Of a stretch of DNA of 55,228 nucleotides, positions 14,597 to 53,925 are shown in pieces (within the stretch, counting starts at the first letter, position 1; the number at the start of each line of letters is the position of its first letter). Source of the stretch: Octopus sinensis (taxonomy: Eukaryota). The translations under genes and the position numbers were made by a program. The notes under the pieces are model-generated. The model was not told the DNA's origin. It ran no database searches and saw only the letters and a program-made list of their open reading frames with translations. The stretch spans positions 1 to 55,228 of the forward strand of contig NW_021833760.1 of the NCBI RefSeq assembly GCF_006345805.1, read 5' to 3'.

Positions 14597-15840
14597 TCAC
14601 GCTGAGTAAAAAGTAAGCAACGTTTTGAAACATGAAATTCATGACAATATATTTCAACAATGAGGAAATTTTATTCAAAGTAAGTACCATTACAATCAAC
14701 ACATTTTTGCCAACGAGTTACAAGTTTGTTTATTCCGGTAACATAAAAGTCTGAAGTTCTGGAGCTGATGAACTCTTTGAACGCACTTACAGCATCAGTT
14801 TGATTTTTGAACTCCTTCTCTTGCAGGAAACCACAAAGGTGCTTGAAAAAGTTGGTAGGAGAAAGGTCTGGAGAATAAGCTGGGTGGGGAAGAACTTCGT
14901 AGCCAAGTTCCCCCAACTTATGGAGCGTCATTAGTGATACGTACAGTCGAGCATTGTCAGGAAGACTTATTGGCCCTCTTTTACAGACCAGTCTGGGACG
15001 GAGGAATAGCAGTATTTCGTTCATTTTGGCAATTTCATGGCAATATGTTTCTGTATTAATGGTTTTTCCTGGTTTTAAGGTTATAGTGGATGAGTCCAGC
15101 AATACACCACCAAGCAGTCACCATAACCTTTTTGAAGAGCTCGAGTTTAGGGAAGGTTTTCAGTATTTCATTTTGGTTGAACGTTTTTTTATTACTGTAC
15201 AGAAGCCACTTTTCATCGTCAGTTATAATACGGTCGAGAAATGGATCAGTTTGGCTATGGAGAAAAAGCGACGAACAAATTTCATATCTGCGCATTTTCT
15301 GGTTTTCAATGAAATTGTGTGGTACTCATTAGTCAAGCCTTTTGATTTTCCGATCGCATGCAAATGGTTGCAGGTAGTTTTCTTGTTAACTCGAAGTTCT
15401 TTTGCCAGTTCTCGAGTGCTTTTACGTGGATCTTTCTCCATGAGTCTTTAATTGACCGACAGCAATGATAGATGGGCGTCCACTACGCTCACGATCTTCA
15501 AGGCTCAAGTCCCCATTGCAAAATCGTTTAAACTATTTTTGAGCTGACCACTCACTGGTCATTTCCTCACCAAATGTTTCGTTGGTATCGCGAGTAGTTT
15601 CAGCTGCTTTTTTGAAGTTGAATAGCAATATTGCTCGAATATCGCGCTTTGATAGTTCCATTTCAGATGATTGTAATAACGTTTAAAAAAAATTATGTTA
15701 ATTTATTGATGCATTTGGGCAAGTCTATGTCTGTATTGTCAGACAATTGCAAAAAAGTATTTTAAAAATTCAAAATTCTACAAAAATTCAGTATAAATTC
15801 TTCATGGTTCAAAACGTTGCTTACTTTTTACTCAACCTGA
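14597..15840 (-). mobile_element. Full-length mariner element, defective
   Basis: ~40-bp TIRs TCA(C/G)G(C/T)TGAGTAAAAAGTAAGCAACGTTTTGAA, TA on both sides, 1244 bp. Confidence 0.93.
14671..15661 (-). pseudogene. Mariner transposase, frameshifted
   Basis: MELSKRDIR start; DRIITDDEKW, PDNAR, HPAYSPDLSP, RWQKCVDCNGTYFE. Confidence 0.9.
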
Positions 15841-18059: not shown

Positions 18060-22130
<4,071 letters not shown>

Positions 22131-24609
22131 CGACACAAATATACACCCCAACATTTATATCAGTACACAATATACAGACGCAATAAATCGTACCATCCCC
22201 AACGATTTGTAGATGGCACGAGGAAGTGAATTCTCGCCTTGACCATGTTATTTTCTGTGATTCTGCTCCCGTTACTACGACCCACTATTAAGAAATTATG
22301 CTAGTGTGCAAATGGTAGCCTGTTAGCGTCCTCTATAAAGAATTAGACTCTGGCACCGAAACATAACATGGTTCAACCCACTCTACATCATAAATGTATT
22401 CAGCGATACAGCTAAGAATATACCGTTGCTATTAAGTAAAAATTCAGTGTTATTTGTGTTAAGGTGAGTTATAGCTGCCTATACAATGTTTCCAGATTTC
22501 AAATCAAAATCTAATACAAACATGCAGCCATTTACCTCTACTAAAGAGGCAAGAGACACGGCCACTATGTTTCGTGAGTTTTTCAGTTCTACTGTCATTT
22601 AATTTTCGAATATATTCAGAATGAGACAGAGAGAGAAAGAGGAAGAATTAATTCTATTTCTTAACCGAAATTAATGTACATTGTGGATGTATCTAACTTA
22701 AAAGGTATTCTGCATAAGCTCCGTATATTTTCTTGCAGTGAGTACGTTACTCACCTTGTAAAGTATAGAATTATACACATGACCTCTTGCATTGCACGCA
22801 GCTCTCGGGCAGAAATAAAAAAGGCTGAATCAGTTTATAAGGAGGAAAAGAAAGAAATTAGAAGATATGAGAAAGCATACTCATGAAACGCTCCCTAGAT
22901 ATCACAATAATCTATAGGATCGGCTACGAAGAATTTGTAATGACAAGTTTCAAGGAATTGTTTGTGACCGTACTGGACAGCATTGAATGAGTACTGAGAT
23001 CATGGAAATGGTTGAGCTCTTCGATTTGATTTTGAAGCGGAATTTTGATTTCTCATCTCGTCTCCCATACTCGTCATCAATGGACACAATACCAAATACG
23101 TATCTCGCAGTGTCATTGATCGGAGTTTTTCGTCAGTTCTCATTATCACTTGTTGGTAGAAAATTGTTTAAATTTGTATCTCACATGAAGTCTAGTCCAC
23201 CCAGCGTGCATGATCAGTTTAATATGTTTTTACATTAACAACCAAAGATGAACGACTTGTTATATAAATTATTATACCAGTAAGTATCTCATGCAACCTC
23301 AAGTTTGTAATAACCAGACTTTATTGCTGTTATTGTTTAGCCTATGCTCGGCCTTGAACCAGTAAATCTATCATTAAAAGTGATGCAGCTGTAAATATAC
23401 CGCTTTTTTCCCCTCCTAACACTTTATCTAATGTGGACTTGTTTTAATACAATAGCATAATATATGAGGAATATTTTACTGCTATTTCTAGTGGGGCGAT
23501 TGACTCCTTCGGTGGCTCACAATCTATTATGATTGTAAGCGTCGAGTTTAAAACTTGTTTCCTTCGCAGGAGCAACAACGTCTTACAAACCAAATATGTT
23601 ACATAAAGTAACAAAACAAAATATATCATAAAAATACTAATGATTTATCATCGTTCAGTGTTTGCTTAAACCTAACGATATAGTCAACTGCACAGACAAA
23701 CAGTCACACAGATATATGTAAACACTGGAATATACGTTAACGATCTATAAATTCATGTTATGGGAGTACATATATATAGAGAGAGATCGGATGCATACAT
23801 ACACTTACATAAATATATATGAAAGTGCATATATATACGTATATACATATATGTACATATAAACATATATGTACATACACATATATATATAAACATATGT
23901 GTGTATGCTTCATCTTTAGGACTAGAAAATACTCGTGCCCTGATTATTTGTTGACTTTCTACAAATCTCAAGTGTAAGCCACTTATCTCAGAAATTTCTA
24001 TGCTACTCACGTAAATAGTAAATAGCGTAGACACGTCGAAAAGAAACTTATTCAGCTGATTGCTAAATATTCACACAAATCTACTGCAACCTCTGCTTCA
24101 AAGAACCATTTTTTTTTTGTATTTCTTACAGCTTCTATAACTATTTCTCTTACTTATACCACAAAACTTCGTATTGATATCATCTAAGTCAACGCAACAC
24201 GTGTGTCACTTCTCGCATTCTGTCTGTCTGTCTCTCCTCCTCTCTCTCTTTCTTTCTCACACCTAAGCACTGCACTAGACCCCTTTCGAATCACACTCAC
24301 CAACTAGAACTGGCGAAAGCTGGAATTCATTTCACTCACTATATTTTCCCAGACAGGAGTAAATAAGCATTAGTTGAGGAAAAGCGCCAAGAATTTCCCC
24401 ATTATTAAAGAATTTGGAAAGGGCATGGAAACTGCTCCATCATCTGATTAAATAATTTTTTAAGAAGGAGGTGGCATTATTAGAAAATAATGTAAATAAA
24501 GTGTTAAAATCTGAAAGTTAAGTTAACAAGCAATTATATAAAAAAGATAATGCAAATGAAGCTAAAATGATAGTTTTATAATTTGGGTTTTATTGAAGAA
24601 CTCAAAAGA

Positions 24610-29005: not shown

Positions 29006-29603
29006 TATTATATACCATAATACGTTTCTATCAACATTTTGTGCAACAACGAAAGAAGTATCTCAAAGTTAGAAATAAATAGTTGGTAGTTATGGCAATG
29101 GTGTTAGTGGAAGCGTCGGAAGAGATGTGGGTGTTGTGAAAGGTAAATAGAGAAAGATAAAGATAGAAAGATTGAGAGAAAAAGAGAGACTAGAAATAGT
29201 GGGCCAATGGAGATATAGAGGCAATAGTAAAACAGTCTTTTTTCTCACTTCTCTCTATTTCACTCTTTCAAAGAAAAACAGGCCTTGCATATATACCTGA
29301 CAGAACTGGACTATAAGCACAAGAGAAATGATAAAATCAAATTGTACCAGATTATCTTCCAAAATGCAGTGCATCAAGTACTGATTAACAACCACAAAAT
29401 ATCAGACAGAAGTCTGCTACACTCAGAATCTACATTGTAAGAAATTAAATCAAAAGTAACCAGAAAGATTGGAATGGTGCGGTAACTGTTTAGATTTTGT
29501 ATCACAGTTTAAATCCAAAACAGATGACTGCTTAGGGATATCTATATATAAAAGACAATCTCGTAGCATGCATGCATGTTAATACCTATACATATATACA
29601 TAC

Positions 29604-29693
<90 letters not shown>

Positions 29694-30079
29694 CCACCCA
29701 CACATTTACATATATGTATATATATATATGCATACATATATATATACATATATATATATGTGCATATATATGCATATATACATGCATATATATATATGTA
29801 CGCACGCACGCACACACACACACTCTCTCACACACAATCATTCATTTTCTAATATTAAATTAAAACACTCAAAATCGCTTGGGAATATTTATGGAATCTT
29901 AAATCCCAAAGTATCTTATCTTTTACTTGTTTCAGTCATTAGAATGCGGCCATGCTGGGGCACCGACTTAAATTTTTCGCCGAATAAATCATTCCTAGTA
30001 GTTGATTTTTTAAAGCGCTGGGAGGACAAATACAGACACAAAGACACACATAGATACGTATACGTTTGATCGCTAGCCA

Positions 30080-30222
30080 CTACACATTCTTTATTTTCTA
30101 TCATTATTTGTTTCTGTGTTCCTTTCTTTGGAAAAGCGTAGGCTCGAAATGTTAAACTAATACATCTGTTTGTTGTCTACACCACCCGTCTTCGTCATTT
30201 TTTTTTGTTGAGAATTCACCCT
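30080..30222 (+). mobile_element. PLE terminal-repeat fragment
   Basis: GCGTAGGCTCGAAA..CTAATACATCTGTTTGTT..ACACCACC.GTCTTCGT shared with 52240-52390 (reverse complement). Confidence 0.7.
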
Positions 30223-30230
30223 ATATATAT

Positions 30231-30274
<44 letters not shown>

Positions 30275-31542
30275 CAGGGGTTGGAAAAATACTGGAAACA
30301 CCTTAAGATTTCAAACTAATTTATTTTGATATGGGTAGGACCGCCTTTGGTAGTAGTTACAGCTTGAATTCTACGGGGTATGGACTGGTACAAAGTTTGA
30401 ATTGTTTCCAAAGGAGTTTTTGTCCATTCTTCAGCTAAAACAGCCTCCAGTTCTTATAGAGATGATGATGGGGGATATCGACTCCTCACTTGTTTTTCTA
30501 AAATGCACCATAAATGTTCAATAATATTGGGATCTAAAGACTGTGGTGACCAGATAAGATGTCCATCTTCACTAGAATGTTTCTCGTGCCATTCAGTTAC
30601 GACTTAAGCTGTGTGAATTGGTGCATTATCATCCTGAAAGATTGCGTTTTCTTCCAGAAACAGTTCTGCAACCATAGGATGAACTCAATAAGATAAAATG
30701 CTTAAATAGTCTTGGCTATTAATTCTGCTATGAGGAAAAACCATAGGGCCGGCGAATTTCCAAGATATAGCCCCTCCCCCACAGATGATCACAGATCCCC
30801 CTCCATGTTTGATTGTTTGGAGAAGGCAGTCTGGATCAAATGCTTCTTTTCGCTGTCTACACACGTATCTTCAGCCGGGGTTGGAAATATGGTAAAGGAT
30901 GACTCGTCCGAGAAAATAACATTCTTCCACTGCTCTAGAGACCAATTCTGTAGGTTTTCACTCCACTCTAAACGCTATGTAACGTTTGTTTTTGAAAGTA
31001 GTGGTTTTCTGATAGCAGCCCTCCCGTGAAATCCGGCTTTGTGCAGCTTACGTCGAACAGTTTTTGTGGAAACTGGGTTCTCGAGGTGGTCATTAAGCTC
31101 TGCAGTAATTTTGGGAGATGAACATTTCTGATCCCTTCTAACAATTCGCGTAAGAATCCGACGGTCCCTATCTGAAAGTTTTGGTTTTCTTCCAGAGTTT
31201 TGTTTCGATGAGGAGGTTTTTCCCTCTTTTTCAAAGGCTGTCATTACTTTCGAGACAGTACTTCTTGATACACCAAACATTTCGGCTGTTTTCGTTGCGC
31301 TAGCGCATGCTATACGAGCACCAACAATTTGACCTCTTTGAAAGTCCGATAGATCTGTCATTTTAATGAATTTTAATGACCTTTTTCTTATGTTATCTGA
31401 AAAGAAACACCAATTTTAGCAAAACGTATTAAGCAACACTAAAAAGAATAATAAAAAAATAAATAAGCTTTTGATGGTTTGATAGATATTTCAAAATTAT
31501 GATACTATGATGCTAGGTGTTTCCATTATTTTCTCCAATCCT

Positions 31543-31544
<2 letters not shown>
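30275..31544 (-). mobile_element. Full-length Tc1-like element, defective
   Basis: TIRs CAGGGGTTGGAAAAATACTGGAAACACCT / CAAGGATTGGAGAAAATAATGGAAACACCT inside (TA)n; 1270 bp. Confidence 0.92.
30325..31361 (-). pseudogene. Tc1-family DD34E transposase, disrupted
   Basis: MTDLSDFQRGQIVGAR, GRKPKLSDRDRR, FSDES, FQDDNAPIH, DPNIIEHLW; stop at 30975. Confidence 0.88.
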
Positions 31545-31583
<39 letters not shown>

Positions 31584-34519
31584 ATATGTATGTGTGTATA
31601 TATATATACATATATATAAATACATCAGGATTCTCTCAGTTTCCGTCTACCTATTCCACTCACAAGGATTTGGTTGGCTCAAGACTATAATAGAAGACAG
31701 TTGCTCAAGGTGTCATGCAGTGGGACTGAAACCAGAACATTGTGGTTAGGAAGCAAGCTTCTAACCACACAGTCACATAGACATTAATTTTCTAATTATA
31801 AATTAAAATGCTTTATCACATTCGGAATATATATGGAATAGAAATAATCCAAAGGTATCATCATATAAATATTAATTTTCCAATCAAAATAAAAAAGCCA
31901 ACATCTCTTGGGTAAAATATATGGAATCTTAAATTCAAAGCTATCATCACGCATAAAGATTCATTATCGAATCGTAAATGTAAATGCGACGGCAGTTTCG
32001 GAATATATATGGAACCTTAAATCAAAAATTATTATGACAAAGCACTTATTCCAAATGAATTAAAACGCTCAGCATTATTTTGGAAACTGAATTCCACATG
32101 TATCATCATATAAAGGTTCACTTTATACTCATAGATTAAAACACTTAACATTGCTTCGGAATATACATGGTATATTAATTCCATAGGTATCATGACAAAG
32201 ATATTCATTTCCTTATACTAAATGAAAATACACAACATCACATTCTGAATATATGTGGGCACTTAGATTCAATATATTATCACAAAATAATTTATTCTTT
32301 AATTATAAGTCAATGTGTCGGTTGGAATATTTTTGGAATCATAAATACAAAATATCATCATATAACCATACAATTTTTAGATCCTTAAAAATCTCAACAT
32401 TGCTTTCGAAATATAAATGTAAATTAAATCCAAAAATATCAGCATATAAAGATTCATTTTCTAAATTAAAATATCTTACATTTCTTTCATAATATTATGA
32501 TGTCTTAAATAAAAATGTAACACCGCATACTTATTAATTTTATAATGATAAATTAAAACACTCATCATCTCTTTCAGAATGTAAAAACATCGAACAAGTA
32601 TTTCGGAATATATATGGAGTTTGAAATTCAAAGGTATCATTGCAGGATATTCACTTTCTAATCGTAAATACAAGACATTGCATTCGGGAATATATACGCA
32701 ATATTAAATGCAAAGTTATTATCAAATAAATATTCAACTTCTGATCATAAATGAAAACGCTGAACATCTTCCTTTTTAGGATAGATATAGACATGCATGT
32801 TCAATGAATCATCAGAAAAAAACGCATTCACATTCTAAGCATGAAATAAATCACTCAACATCACTTTTGCAATACATATGGAGTCTGAAATACAAATGCA
32901 TCACCACATAGCTATTCATTTTGTAATCATAAATTAAATCACTGTACATCACTATGGGACATATATGGATTCTTAATTAGAACAGCATGACATTCAACAT
33001 TAATTTTCGTCTCATAAATTATATCATAGGAAATCTTTTCTCAGAATATGTATAAAAGTTTAAATCCAAAACACGTAAACACGTAAATCCAAAATGCGTA
33101 TACATTCATTTTCTAATCACAAAGAAAATATGCAACATCTATTTTAATATGTATATGTTGTCTCAAAGCAAAATGTATCATGACTTCATTTTCTGATCGT
33201 AAATGAAAACAGTCAATATTTCTTTCGGTATATACATGGTATCTTAAATCAAAATGTATCCTCATGGCACCGTACATTTATTAATCAAAATTTACAACAC
33301 TCAGCATCGACTACGGAATATATATCGCAAAATATTTCATTTCCTAAGCAGAAATTAAATACTCAATATCGCCTCTTTCGGGATATATTTCGCATATGAA
33401 ATACAACATACCTTCTCTAAATATTCATTTTCCAGTCATGTTTTAAATCATTCAACATTTCTTTTGAAATGTATATGAACTCTTAAATCCAAACTATCAA
33501 AACATAAACGCTCATTTTGTAATCATAAACTGAAATATGCAAGTCTTTCAGAATCTATATAGGGAATAAAATACAAACGTATCACCTCATCATTATTAAG
33601 TGACAAATCATAAATTTGAACTTACAAGATCACTTTTATAATGCATTTGTAATTTCATAAATAACAATGGAAATATTTTCTAATAAAAGATTTAAATCGC
33701 AACGTCGCTTTTGAAATATCTGTGATTTATCCACCCTAAAGCATCAATAGTTTAATCAGAAATCCAAACATTCATCATCTCTATCAGAATATATATGGAA
33801 TCAAAAATACTAAATATCTTCGTATAAACATTCATTTTCTAAATCTTAACAGCACTTTGGAAATATACATGGAACCTTAAATACAAAATAAGATAAACTT
33901 TCATTTTGTCAGCATAAATATAAACATTTAATCTCCCTATTTATGAAATCTTAAATAGAAAAGTATCAAGATATTGACATGCATTTCTTAATCACAAATG
34001 AAAAGAACCAACATCTGTTCTAGAATGTATATGAAACCTGAAAGCAAAATGTATCAACATATAGTTATTCAGTTTCTAAACTTAAAATAAATCACTCAAC
34101 ATAATTTCTGTTTATATTTGAAATCTTAAATAAAAAGTAATCATCACATTGGCTTTTATTTCCAAATCTGAAATTAAATAACAGAAGACCTGTTATATGG
34201 AATTTAAAATCCAAATTCAGTAATCTTCGGATCATAAATTAAAACATTCTACATCTCTTTAGGAATATATACGGAATTTTAAGTGGAAATGTATCACCAT
34301 AACAACGTATCGTTTTCGGAAAATATATGCGTCTGAAGTATAAAGGTATCACCACAGAACATTAATTTTCTTATCTAATATTAAAACATTGAACGTCCAT
34401 ATATATGAAATCTTAAATCCGAGGATAGCATCACACTATCATCCATTTCCTAATTGCATAAGAATTTATACAACATCGATTTCAGAATATGTATGGTACA
34501 AATAGATTAAGTATCAGCC

Positions 34520-34627
34520 TTAAAAGGAAATAAGTTCTGTGGTCGATTCGTTCGACTAAAAGTATTCAAGCTGTTGCTCCAGCGTGACTGCAATGTAATG
34601 ACTGAAAAGAGTTAAAGATAAAAGATA
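34520..34627 (+). mobile_element. SINE A-like 3' tail inserted in the array
   Basis: AATAAG..GGTCGATTCGTTCGACTAAA..GCTCCAGC..ATGACTGAAA..(AAAGAT). Confidence 0.7.
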
Positions 34628-35769
34628 AAGACCTCTATCGGTATAAATATGGTGTATGAAATTTTACGGTATTATCACAAAACGTTGCTTTTTACTTATA
34701 AATTAAAGCGTTCAGCATCTCTTTCGAAATGCATATGGAATATTAGATTCAAAAGTAAGAACGATTAAATATAAATTTTCTAAACATAAATTTTTACTGT
34801 AGTATCTCTTTTCACATCATAAATGAAAACACTACATAATTTTCGAAGTATATTTAAATCTAAGATAAAAAATATCAACATATTAACATTCATATTATAA
34901 CCATAATTAAAACTCTCCAGCATTTCTTTTAGAATATATATATATAGGGTCTGAAATCAGAATGTACAACAACATAGTTATTCCTTTTGTAATCGTTTTA
35001 TGCATTTACTTTCAAATCCTAAATCTGACTATGCAGCATCTTTTTCGAAATATATGGTATGATCACAAAATCATTCACTTTCTAATCATAAATTAAAATA
35101 CTCAACTCTACTTTGGACCACATATGAAGTATGAAACGCGAATGCATAACCACATACTTTCTGATAATTATATACAACTCTTAATATACCTTGCCGATTA
35201 TATTTGGTATTGTAAATAATATGTATCCTCAAATAGGCATTTATTATCTAATAATAAATTATAATAATCAACAATTGTCTGGTAATATATATGGAATATT
35301 AAACCCAAATGCATGATCATAAACATTTTATTTACTGATCAAGAGTTTAAACACCATTATCGTTTTGGAATATATATGGAATCTTAAGAACAAAGGTTTC
35401 ATAAAAAAATCATTTTCAAGCTATTTATAAATGAAAACTCAGCATCTTGGTCAGAATATATATATATGGAATCATAAATACCAAATATTCTCACATGAAC
35501 AATCATTTTCTCTCCATAAATTCCAACACCTCTTTCTAAAGATATGTGAAGTGTTTAATAAAAAATATCAATACATAAACAATAATTTTCTGATAAAATA
35601 TACAATTTCTACATCTCTTTCGGAATATTATATGGCATCCGAATTCAGCATGAATCATACCATAGTTTTTCCTTATCAAATCATTAATGACAATATGCAG
35701 CATATATTTTGAAATATATTTAGAATCACATATGAGGAGGAATTATCAGATGAACATTTATTTTCAAAT

Positions 35770-36262
35770 TGAGGAGCCTTTCTCTGGTCGTTTGATTTCT
35801 TCCTTTGCCTTCTGGTGGCGTCAAAATATTGGTTCCAATGGTGATGGAATATCACCAGTTGGTACGCTCTCGGATTTGTGTTTCAAACGATTTAGGCTCA
35901 AATCCAGTTGCGTTCGGTGTTATTTTGGTTGGTCCTAGTATCTTTGAAGTAAGCTCGCTGAATAAAGCTTGACGCGGGAACATCGCCTCTTCCATTTTTG
36001 CTACATGTCCTGACCATCTAAAGACAATGTTTCATGATCAGCGATTCATTGCCTTGACTGTTAGCTCTTTCCAGGACATTGTTGTTGGTTACATGGTGTT
36101 CCCATTTGATGTCCAAGATTGATCGAAGCTTTTGCTGATGAAAGCGTTCTAATTTCAGAGTCCAAAATTTGCTGCCATAGAGTAAGGTTGAAATGACAAC
36201 AGCATTATAAACCATACTTTTTGTTGCTATTTTCAGACGTTAGTTGTTGAAGACTCGTTTGA
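35770..36262 (-). mobile_element. RTE-clade LINE fragment
   Basis: VYNAVVISTLLYGS.FWT, LERFHQQKLRSILDIKW, RWSGHV. Confidence 0.82.
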
Positions 36263-36554
36263 GTTAAAACTCACTACAACTCATTCGGAATAAGTATCGA
36301 AATTTAAATCCAAACGTGTCATCGCAAAAAATTCATTTCTTAATCATAAATTAAAACACTGAACATCTTCGTCGGAATATATATGGATTTTGAAATATCA
36401 TCATATAAACATTCATTTTCTATAATAAAATAAGAAACTCAACATCTGTTTCGAAATATGTGTAATCCAAAATCCAAAATCCAAAGGCACTACAAAATCC
36501 TTTCATCTTTCTCATCACAAATTAAAATACTTAACATCCCAGCTTTTTATCAAA

Positions 36555-37080
36555 CAAATGAACCTCAGAAAATGGTGAGAAACACATAATTGAAATTGCA
36601 CACGGGCCATTTCGAAAGCTAATCAAACGCGACTTCAACAGCAAAAATCTATACTTAGCAACAACAATTATGCTCTATAATGCTGTCATTTCAACCTTTC
36701 TATATGGCAGCGAATCCTGGACGCTATTTCGACGCGACATCCAAAAATTAGAACGCTTTCACCAGCTGGACTGAGCTAACAGTCAAGGCAATGAATCGCT
36801 GACCATGAAACTCTGTCTTTGATGATCAGGACATGTAGTAAAAATGGAAGAGGCAATGTTCCCACGTAAAGACTTATGAAGCGAGCTTACTTCAGGGAAA
36901 AGACCAGAGGTGGTCCTCTTTGAAAGTACTAGGACCAACTCAAAATAACACCTGTAGCTGCTGAATTTCAACCTAAATAGTTTGAAACACAAACCCGTGA
37001 GCGTACCAACTGGTGGTATTTCATCACCATCGGAACCAAATAATTTGAAGCCACCAGAAGAGAAAGGAAGAAATTAAATC
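36555..37080 (+). mobile_element. RTE-clade LINE fragment, inverted relative to 35770-36262
   Basis: Same family: LYGSESWTL, LERFHQ; 36927-37078 matches the reverse complement of 35792-35940. Confidence 0.82.
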
Positions 37081-52239: not shown

Positions 52240-53925
52240 TAGGGAGAGTTTACGAAAAATTCAAAACACGAAGACAGGTGGTGTACAAAACAAACAGATG
52301 TATTAGTATAACGCTCAGGAATAGAAAAAAGTATTTTACGTTTCGAGCCTACGCTATTCTACAGAAAGGGACACAGAAAAAACAAGGAGAGAAAAAATGT
52401 GTGTTGTGGCTAACGATCTATCATGGCGACTAGTGCCGGACAGAAAGGTCAAACACGAGATGGAAAGTAGGGGAGATAACAAGGTAAAGATGACCCCCAA
52501 CACAAAGGTGCGTGTGTGTATAATAGAGTATGTTGCGTGTGAAAGAGGGCTGGTGGTCTGGACGTGTGCGTATATGTATGTGTAGGTGGGAAAATGTGGG
52601 GATGGATGTTGTGATGTGATGTGTAATGTTGTATGGTGTATGGTGTGGTGTGGTGTTGTGTGATGTTGTTGGGAGGTGGGGGAGACGAGGGTGCGGAAAG
52701 CACGGGTGGGGTGTGGGTTCGGCTGGGGGTTGGGGTTTGTGGGTATAGGTGGGGTATGTGGGGAGGGGTGTGGGATAGGATGGGGGATGGGAAGGTGAAG
52801 TAGGGATGTGTAGGGGTGGATGGGTTTATGGGGGAGAGAGGAGGAGAGAAGAGAGAAAGAAAGTAAGAGAGAAGAGAGAAAGAGAGAGTGAAAGAGTAGG
52901 CGAGAAGAGAGAAAGAGAATAAGAGAGGAGAGAGAAAGAGAGTAAGAGAGAAGAGAGTAGGAGAGAAGAGAAGAAGAGAATAAGAGGGAAGAGGGAAGGA
53001 GGGGAGAGAAAGAGAGTAGGAGAGAGGAGGAGAGGAGAGAGGGGAAGAGGAGAGAAGGAGAGTGGGGGCAGAGAGAAAGAGAGAAGAGAGCAAGAGAGTA
53101 AGGGAGAAGAGGGAAAGAGAGTAGGGGTGAAAAGATGTAGGAGTGAAGAGAAGTAGGAGTCGGGGAGGAGATTAGATGAAGAGGGGAGGAGAGTTGAGCC
53201 CAAATGGCGTAAAAGAGAGAGATTAATCCCTGTTCACGGCGCAAACGGGAGTCCGGATGGCCTCTGTGCAAGGAAAATCCGAACACAGACAGGTGTTGCA
53301 AAGAGTGACCAGTGGAGCGGAAATAGCGTGAGACTGCGGTGTCATTGCCAAGGCGGATGTCTCGGAGGTGTTCCGCGAATCGGTCAGCCAAGCGGCGTCT
53401 CGTTTGTTCGATGTACAGGGAATGGCAGAGAGAGCAGGAGATGCAATAGATTATATTGCTAGAGGTGCAGGGGAAGGAGTCGATGATGCGATAGGGTCGA
53501 TGATAGGTGCCGGTGAGGCGGGTGGTGTTGGAGAGGTATGGGCAAGTGCGGCAGTGTGGGCGGGAGCAGGGGAACGAGCCAGGTTGGGAGGTAGGGTTGG
53601 GGAAGAAGCTGTGGACCAAGAGGTCTCGTAGGTTGTGGGCTCGTTTGAAGGAGGGGAGGGGTCGGTTAGGGAAGATGTGTGAAGTGGACCGGAGATGCCG
53701 AAAAGCTTGGAGAATGGAGCGTTGGAGAGGTAGGGTGGTGGGGTGGTAGGTGAGGGGAAAAGGTAGGCGGGAGACTGCAGGGCGAGTTCGGGGGGGAGGG
53801 AGAGAGCAGATGCACGGTCCACGGAACGTGCTCTGGCAAGGGCGGTGTGGATAGTGGTGAGGGGATATCCACGTAGGATGAAGTGGCGAGCCATGAGTTG
53901 AGACTGAGTCTCAAAGTCATGGTTA
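52240..53925 (-). mobile_element. Penelope-like retroelement 3' part (Neptune-type GIY-YIG)
   Basis: FILRGYP thumb, then CSRPHCRTC, CTSSNIIYCISCSLCHSLYIEQTRRRLADRFAEH, R..REQ; terminal repeat with hammerhead-like motif at 52333-52370; frameshifted. Confidence 0.88.

Follow-up and report, generated by a model that had tools for sequence, protein, structure and literature searches.

Telomerase adds repeats by copying a short window of RNA again and again. In the sections of Craig et al. (2021) drawn on here, the reverse transcriptases (RTs) of Penelope-like elements (PLEs) share their most recent ancestor with telomerase RT, elements of the Hydra clade insert into (TA)n and carry a DKT motif in their RT, the supplement places the motif YIW.L in this clade, and MRC1 is described as a head-to-tail, non-autonomous PLE derivative (PMC8557442). 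Retrozymes are a further head-to-tail PLE-derived sequence, and in the available parts of both sources these derivatives stem from 3' ends or pLTRs, with hammerheads in the retrozymes, and not from the middle of a coding region (10.64898/2026.07.22.740005; PMC8557442). Tandem repeats drawn from retroelement coding regions are also known, since the accessible text of PMC9659126 lists chicken HinfI from ORF2 of CR1, PROsat and Pvc20 from ORF2 of L1, and rye E3900 and Cereba from gag, with a fragment of a retroelement ORF making up all or part of the monomer. Lastly, DRT2 produces tandem, concatemeric cDNA, according to the portion of PMC12039810 used here.

I describe an array from Octopus sinensis (contig NW_021833760.1) that consists of head-to-tail monomers homologous to part of a transposon, the features that define a transposon-derived tandem repeat; "the window" below is the whole stretch of DNA analysed, 55,228 nt long. 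As far as the available sections of PMC8557442 allow comparison, the frame of its unit matches the Hydra-clade endonuclease from HK.SF to YIW.LK without gaps and (TA)n, a tract very common in the window, lies adjacent, but the match covers only about 28 codons in some 52 copies that are out of frame with one another, an E stands where 109 of 112 endonucleases have K, RT, linker, pLTR and hammerhead are lacking, and there is no single ORF joining an RT to a C-terminal endonuclease. The array shares its origin in a retroelement ORF fragment with the repeats of PMC9659126, yet it differs from them in its PLE endonuclease source ("Penelope" occurs 0 times in the accessible text), in its small size, in occupying apparently one locus and in not being homogenised. 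It is head-to-tail PLE-derived sequence like the retrozymes and MRC1, whereas its unit comes from inside the coding sequence, and 26-41 kb yielded no hammerhead. DRT2 offers a possible analogy, one short RNA window copied repeatedly, although at this locus RT-made repeats are not in evidence, the tandem copies hold no open frame and no dedicated template RNA is known.

Layout of the array and its surroundings

A sequence-only reading had proposed an array of about 50 units, and this is confirmed by wraparound alignment (56 segments), which gives 52 plus-strand units head to tail, each with at least 40 aligned columns, at a period of 88 nt; the periodicity lies far above that of shuffled sequence, with 80 pairs of 6-mers spaced 80-89 nt apart in 31781-35760 against 15.9 +/- 5.2 (maximum 29) in 50 base shuffles. 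Over the whole window, iterated searching with nhmmer returned 50 matches (46 at E<0.05), all on the plus strand and all within 29843-36538. The array does occupy the span first given for it, 29838-36540, but about 2.4 kb of these 6.7 kb is other sequence, and the array proper amounts to 4,260 nt in four blocks split by insertions:

29587-29797, (TA)n/(CA)n microsatellite immediately before array block 1 (TRF)
about 29830-29915, plus strand, array block 1, ~1 unit (nhmmer, wraparound alignment)
29916-31768, nested insertions between blocks 1 and 2, SINE-like pieces and a Tc1/mariner-like element (self-BLAST, Pfam)
31769-34507, plus strand, array block 2, ~33 units (wraparound alignment)
34502-34624, piece of a high-copy SINE-like repeat within the array (self-BLAST; also in organism E)
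34626-35770, plus strand, array block 3, ~14 units (wraparound alignment)
35791-36262, minus strand, non-LTR retrotransposon 3' fragment within the array (no Pfam match)
36256-36545, plus strand, array block 4, ~3.5 units (wraparound alignment)
36623-37078, plus strand, second 3' fragment of the same non-LTR family, at the array's right end

The Tc1/mariner-like element has inverted ends at 30227-30303 and 31515-31591 (self-BLAST) and Pfam matches to HTH_Tnp_Tc3_2 (E=7.9e-14) and DDE_3 (E=3.2e-5). Unit phase is maintained across this first interruption (column 7 to about column 5-8) and likewise across the third, the non-LTR fragment at 35791-36262, as expected for insertions into one older array. 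That fragment, which I take to be RTE-like, and its partner at 36623-37078 are 72% identical and stand in opposite orientation on either side of the last 3.5 units, and the abundant SINE-like repeat of the window presumably resembles the octopus SINE. At 34795-34797, sequencing runs X4 and X14 have 45-54 nt more than the window, which there holds either a deletion allele or an assembly slip.

The label "satellite", also proposed initially, is too strong for an array of 4.3 kb with no close paralogue in view: four of the 24 listed sequencing runs were examined and gave no sign of paralogues at 80% identity or above, a limit below which older, less similar copies fall. In these runs the array bins show flat low depth, which is not the same as copy number, with one long contig each, and the SINE and LINE bins differ; the array is retained in all four. 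The TRF rows covering the region list no such array.

The window overall is AT-rich, animal-type DNA with many microsatellites and dispersed repeats. Elsewhere in it are a 727-codon open frame on the plus strand at 770-2953 with a reverse transcriptase domain (RVT_1, E=4.9e-30), a mariner-like transposase fragment on the minus strand at 14671-15117 with a weak match to Transposase_1 (E=0.0017), and, on the minus strand at 53157-53760, a frame with cysteine and histidine motifs that by eye resembles a Neptune/Naiad-type PLE endonuclease and has no Pfam match.

A probable source in a Hydra-clade endonuclease

Units share 77% of positions with their consensus and 63% with one another. The peptides quoted in the sequence-only reading at ~36333 and ~33767 are present, and its consensus peptide agrees with the consensus frame except at two nearly tied columns, one giving S or Y after LK (C 18, A 18) and the other G or C (G 13, T 18). 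Its statement that the array is not a repeat protein also stands, given frequent stops, indels and a period that is not a multiple of 3. A repeat protein or zinc-finger exon was considered and is excluded by the frame-breaking 88-nt period, the frequent stops and the lack of any codon-position effect in the units (p=0.56).

The proposal that the unit came from a PLE GIY-YIG endonuclease has been borne out and narrowed to the Hydra clade: a profile score, a published alignment and metagenome relatives together support the view that it derives from the endonuclease coding segment of such an element. The segment has the Hydra-type GIY-YIG spacing without the CCHH histidines, and its gap-free spacing equals that of four Hydra endonucleases in Fig. 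S2 of PMC8557442, which are independent sequences compared by eye. On the same published evidence, as far as the available part goes, a Naiad or Neptune origin is excluded, those clades having CCHH histidines and a different sequence at this place.

A degenerate pattern made from the unit's frame found 58 metagenome loci, of which 39 have a YIG-type motif, 36 a CxCx5-6C linker, 38 a CxLC motif and 53 at least one of the three, the remaining 5 looking, on inspection, truncated or frameshifted; two patterns run against viral contigs had 0 matches. Among the long ORFs of these relatives, 8 of 13 carry the RT motif YRDD and 4 of 13 carry ADKT, which fits the DKT motif of the Hydra RT. The CxCx5C linker, the CxxC/CxH motifs and the RT with DKT, present in the relatives, lie outside the 88-nt unit and are hence absent from the array. 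Since Pfam recognised no RT or GIY-YIG family in any of the four Hydra-type ORFs submitted to it, the assignment rests on motifs and the published alignment. One Hydra-type ORF (L031:54-2681, minus strand) continues past the endonuclease for about 210 extra residues, which by eye resemble a cysteine-protease domain and have no Pfam match.

The sixteen positions that the pattern leaves unfixed also favour the unit (p=0.011 by permutation, 5.5e-4 against random codons; 19 non-redundant blocks from 49 stop-free blocks). A wider search yielded 2,679 relatives, and among the 120 of them that were listed and built into a profile the best natural protein is identical to the consensus at 17 of 28 residues, with no gaps. 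Against this profile the consensus reaches, in a single frame of the six, 27.7 bits (P=9.5e-11), a value to be read with the fact that the endonuclease sets descend from the unit-derived pattern and that the query behind the 2,679 matches held unit rows, which leaves the profile partly dependent on the unit. Of 3,000 dinucleotide shuffles none exceeded 9.8 bits, P corrected for six frames and 25,000 families is still about 1e-5, and the top 14 tiles of the whole window against the profile all lie in the array. Protein searches with translated-unit alignments (17 and 9 of the 52 units) returned either no matches or 5 unrelated repetitive proteins, and the ESM Atlas gave no usable match. No parent protein from the host lineage was recognised among the 120 listed of the 2,679 matches, and beside the array no parent sequence was detected, with no RT or other part of an endonuclease adjoining it. 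Among 83 Rfam matches in 26-41 kb, all below the gathering score, there were 0 hammerheads, a search that a decayed one could escape.

At the unit boundaries, a microhomology by which one junction could be read both as K-R-Y (unit start) and as K-G-I (unit end) had been suggested, and it is plausible. Both readings have natural counterparts, as the residues before the H are R-Y or R-F in 105 of 112 endonucleases and some of these proteins show an LK.K.I ending; against this, the microhomology requires the loss of 1 nt, G is a minority base at the junction column (T 18, G 13, A 7, C 5) and no intact parent was found in these searches. On two details the first description is too strong, since exact copies number 3 for the junction word AAAGGTATC and 2 for the 16-nt core.

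A second trace of the clade lies 7 kb upstream of the array, where a decayed relic (22130-22811) follows a (TA)n tract and consists of two pieces that meet near 22565:

22345-22496, plus strand, decayed Hydra-type PLE sequence from immediately before the endonuclease, with WFNP and VKVSYSC motifs (tblastn E 7.8e-4)
22564-22811, minus strand, decayed Hydra-type endonuclease segment, inverted relative to the first piece (tblastn E 7.5e-4)

The best E in the reversed window, used as a control, was 0.043. The linker, CxxC/CxH and RT motifs of the relic are only partly legible, and its inverted piece spans the region homologous to the array unit. Relic and unit both have the E of SEYI, found in 0 of the 112 other endonucleases. 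This E is a single base change, and in nucleotide sequence the relic resembles the unit no more than other Hydra endonucleases do (61.5 vs 56.6 +/- 8.2), so the relic suggests that a related Hydra family was present without revealing which sequence was the parent. Further endonuclease-like motifs, near 8.6, 11.3, 24.1 and 52.2 kb, are weak and were set aside, their scores falling within reversed-window noise.

Age, amplification and rival explanations

Divergence among the units is star-like, about 23% from the consensus, and a colinear copy of the array in a second organism (organism E) includes the SINE and LINE pieces, all of which agrees with the earlier description of an ancient, decayed array. 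Unit identity to the consensus varies as much as a binomial predicts (SD 0.047), none of the lags between 1 and 29 is conspicuous, which excludes a higher-order repeat, no linkage between columns survives correction in 190 or 120 tests, and shared-change statistics lie close to 14 star simulations, with a variance (2.12) slightly above all 100 permutations (maximum 2.03) and the 14 simulations (maximum 2.04). Together, the binomial spread, the absence of lag and linkage and the star-like sharing indicate an amplification that was fast relative to the age of the array, with no later homogenisation. Concerted evolution is absent: the monomers are not homogenised and neighbours share fewer changes than average. 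For adjacent units the deficit in shared derived changes against random pairs has p=0.012 at lag 1, among 6 lags, and the ratio is 0.78 compared with 0.82-1.09 in 14 simulations. Decay has been faster at C and G than at A and T.

The window and organism E differ at 5.5% of array positions (157/2841), and in the 31 listed differences, which cover 31823-32362 (40 of 450 rows), the consensus base is kept by the window in 15, by organism E in 12 and by neither in 4. Jukes-Cantor distances of 0.275 to the consensus and 0.057 between the organisms make the array about 9.6 times older than the split from organism E. If the octopus rate of 0.0036 per million years given in the available part of PMC13282606 applies, its age would be about 76 million years; the same source reports a PLE expansion at distance 0.2.

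The reading I prefer, with a probability of roughly 0.6, is that one short and ancient amplification at the DNA level multiplied a PLE coding fragment that then decayed without function. The seed would have been a direct repeat, short and imperfect, within the parent gene, formed by the codons for the conserved R-Y upstream and for an L-K-x-K-G-I-like stretch about 89 nt downstream, which would have allowed a first duplication. Slippage, unequal exchange or rolling circle might then have raised the copy number quickly relative to the age of the array, after which homogenisation would have stopped, the copies would have mutated independently, and pieces of SINE, Tc1/mariner and LINE would have inserted. 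The array itself would not move alone, since it encodes no enzyme and no hammerhead was detected in 26-41 kb.

DNA-level duplication, rolling circle and RT re-priming fit the data alike; rapid amplification of whatever kind should leave a star tree. A PLE RT could have built the array in one insertion by re-priming on the same 88-nt window of RNA through the junction repeat, with decay following, and the star-like divergence, the single orientation and the lack of similarity between neighbours all agree with this, as do the start of the array beside a (TA)n/(CA)n tract, the kind of site into which Hydra elements insert, the kinship of PLE and telomerase RTs, the tandem cDNA made by DRT2 and the position of the two most variable columns, which flank the inferred junction. 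I nevertheless regard it as unlikely, since (TA)n tracts are very common in the window, the surroundings of the array yielded neither an element 3' end nor a hammerhead, the two most variable columns are unlinked ([[4,3],[8,4]], p=1.0) and unclustered along the array, and polymorphism is no higher in the junction zone than in the middle of the unit (p=0.20). The absence of both linkage and clustering excludes mosaic junctions from variable jump points. The two near-tied columns suggest more than one amplification step, which counts against the single episode of the preferred reading. Doubtful to the same degree as RT re-priming is the view of the array as a fossil left by a PLE RT that synthesised repeats as telomerase does, in some 50 rounds of re-priming on one 88-nt window of its own endonuclease RNA through a short junction repeat, and frozen in the genome in a single insertion. 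Alternatively, what inserted here could have been tandem beforehand, as one copy either of a once-mobile, non-autonomous PLE derivative or of a satellite family with dispersed members; head-to-tail derivatives of this kind are on record and unlinked near-tied columns would fit a mixed source array, but the derivatives described in the accessible parts of the literature have other sources than mid-coding sequence, and the low, flat depth and single contigs of the array bins speak against it, within a view that takes in copies at least 80% identical and not old sister arrays. This explanation I consider quite unlikely.

Least probable, in my estimation, is that the host keeps the array, either as a source of small RNAs against Hydra-type PLEs or for protein binding or spacing centred on the (AT)4 core. 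Uniform neutral decay together with a lack of small RNAs had been named beforehand as an outcome that would speak against any function, and when the decay was checked by column, conservation proved far more uneven than a neutral model predicts, with a per-column chi2 of 279 against 82-120 in 14 of 14 neutral star simulations and still 182 on 67 df after dinucleotide context. The positions of (AT)4 are 88% conserved against 80% at other A/T positions (p=9e-5, a post hoc comparison), the array is retained in the 4 runs, and it has diverged less from organism E than the adjacent LINE fragment has (5.5% vs 8.5%, 26/306; p=0.04), a weak hint of constraint between sequences whose base composition differs. 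The heterogeneity, the (AT)4 excess and the lower divergence all speak against plain neutrality; early variants, tract slippage and base composition might be their causes, and slippage of TA tracts could preserve their purity without selection; ATAT insertions are seen in 2 units. The 16-nt core, said initially to recur most recognisably, is as a whole no better conserved than the remainder after base correction (p=0.31; best 16-nt window p=0.16), only its (AT)4 middle being more conserved, and that post hoc, with the G-containing flanks at 74%. Differences from organism E are as frequent in the core as in the rest (4/102 vs 27/450, p=0.63, the 31 listed differences), several insertions have been tolerated, and at 23% from the ancestor pairing with the parent element would probably be poor. 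A function of the array is unsupported, and an ancient amplification followed by decay is the reading carried forward here.

Meaning for Penelope-like elements and their host

The full-text literature searched, mainly papers free of subscription, showed no tandem array from a PLE endonuclease, and the repeat library of PMC13282606 may already contain the unit. Tandem repeats from transposon coding regions are known, and the PLE endonuclease is added here as a source. A consensus can reveal where an array came from even when decay hides the array from TRF, and the present one records an old Hydra-clade family in the host lineage. If RT re-priming were true after all, the array would count as genomic evidence for repeat addition by the retroelement relatives of telomerase.
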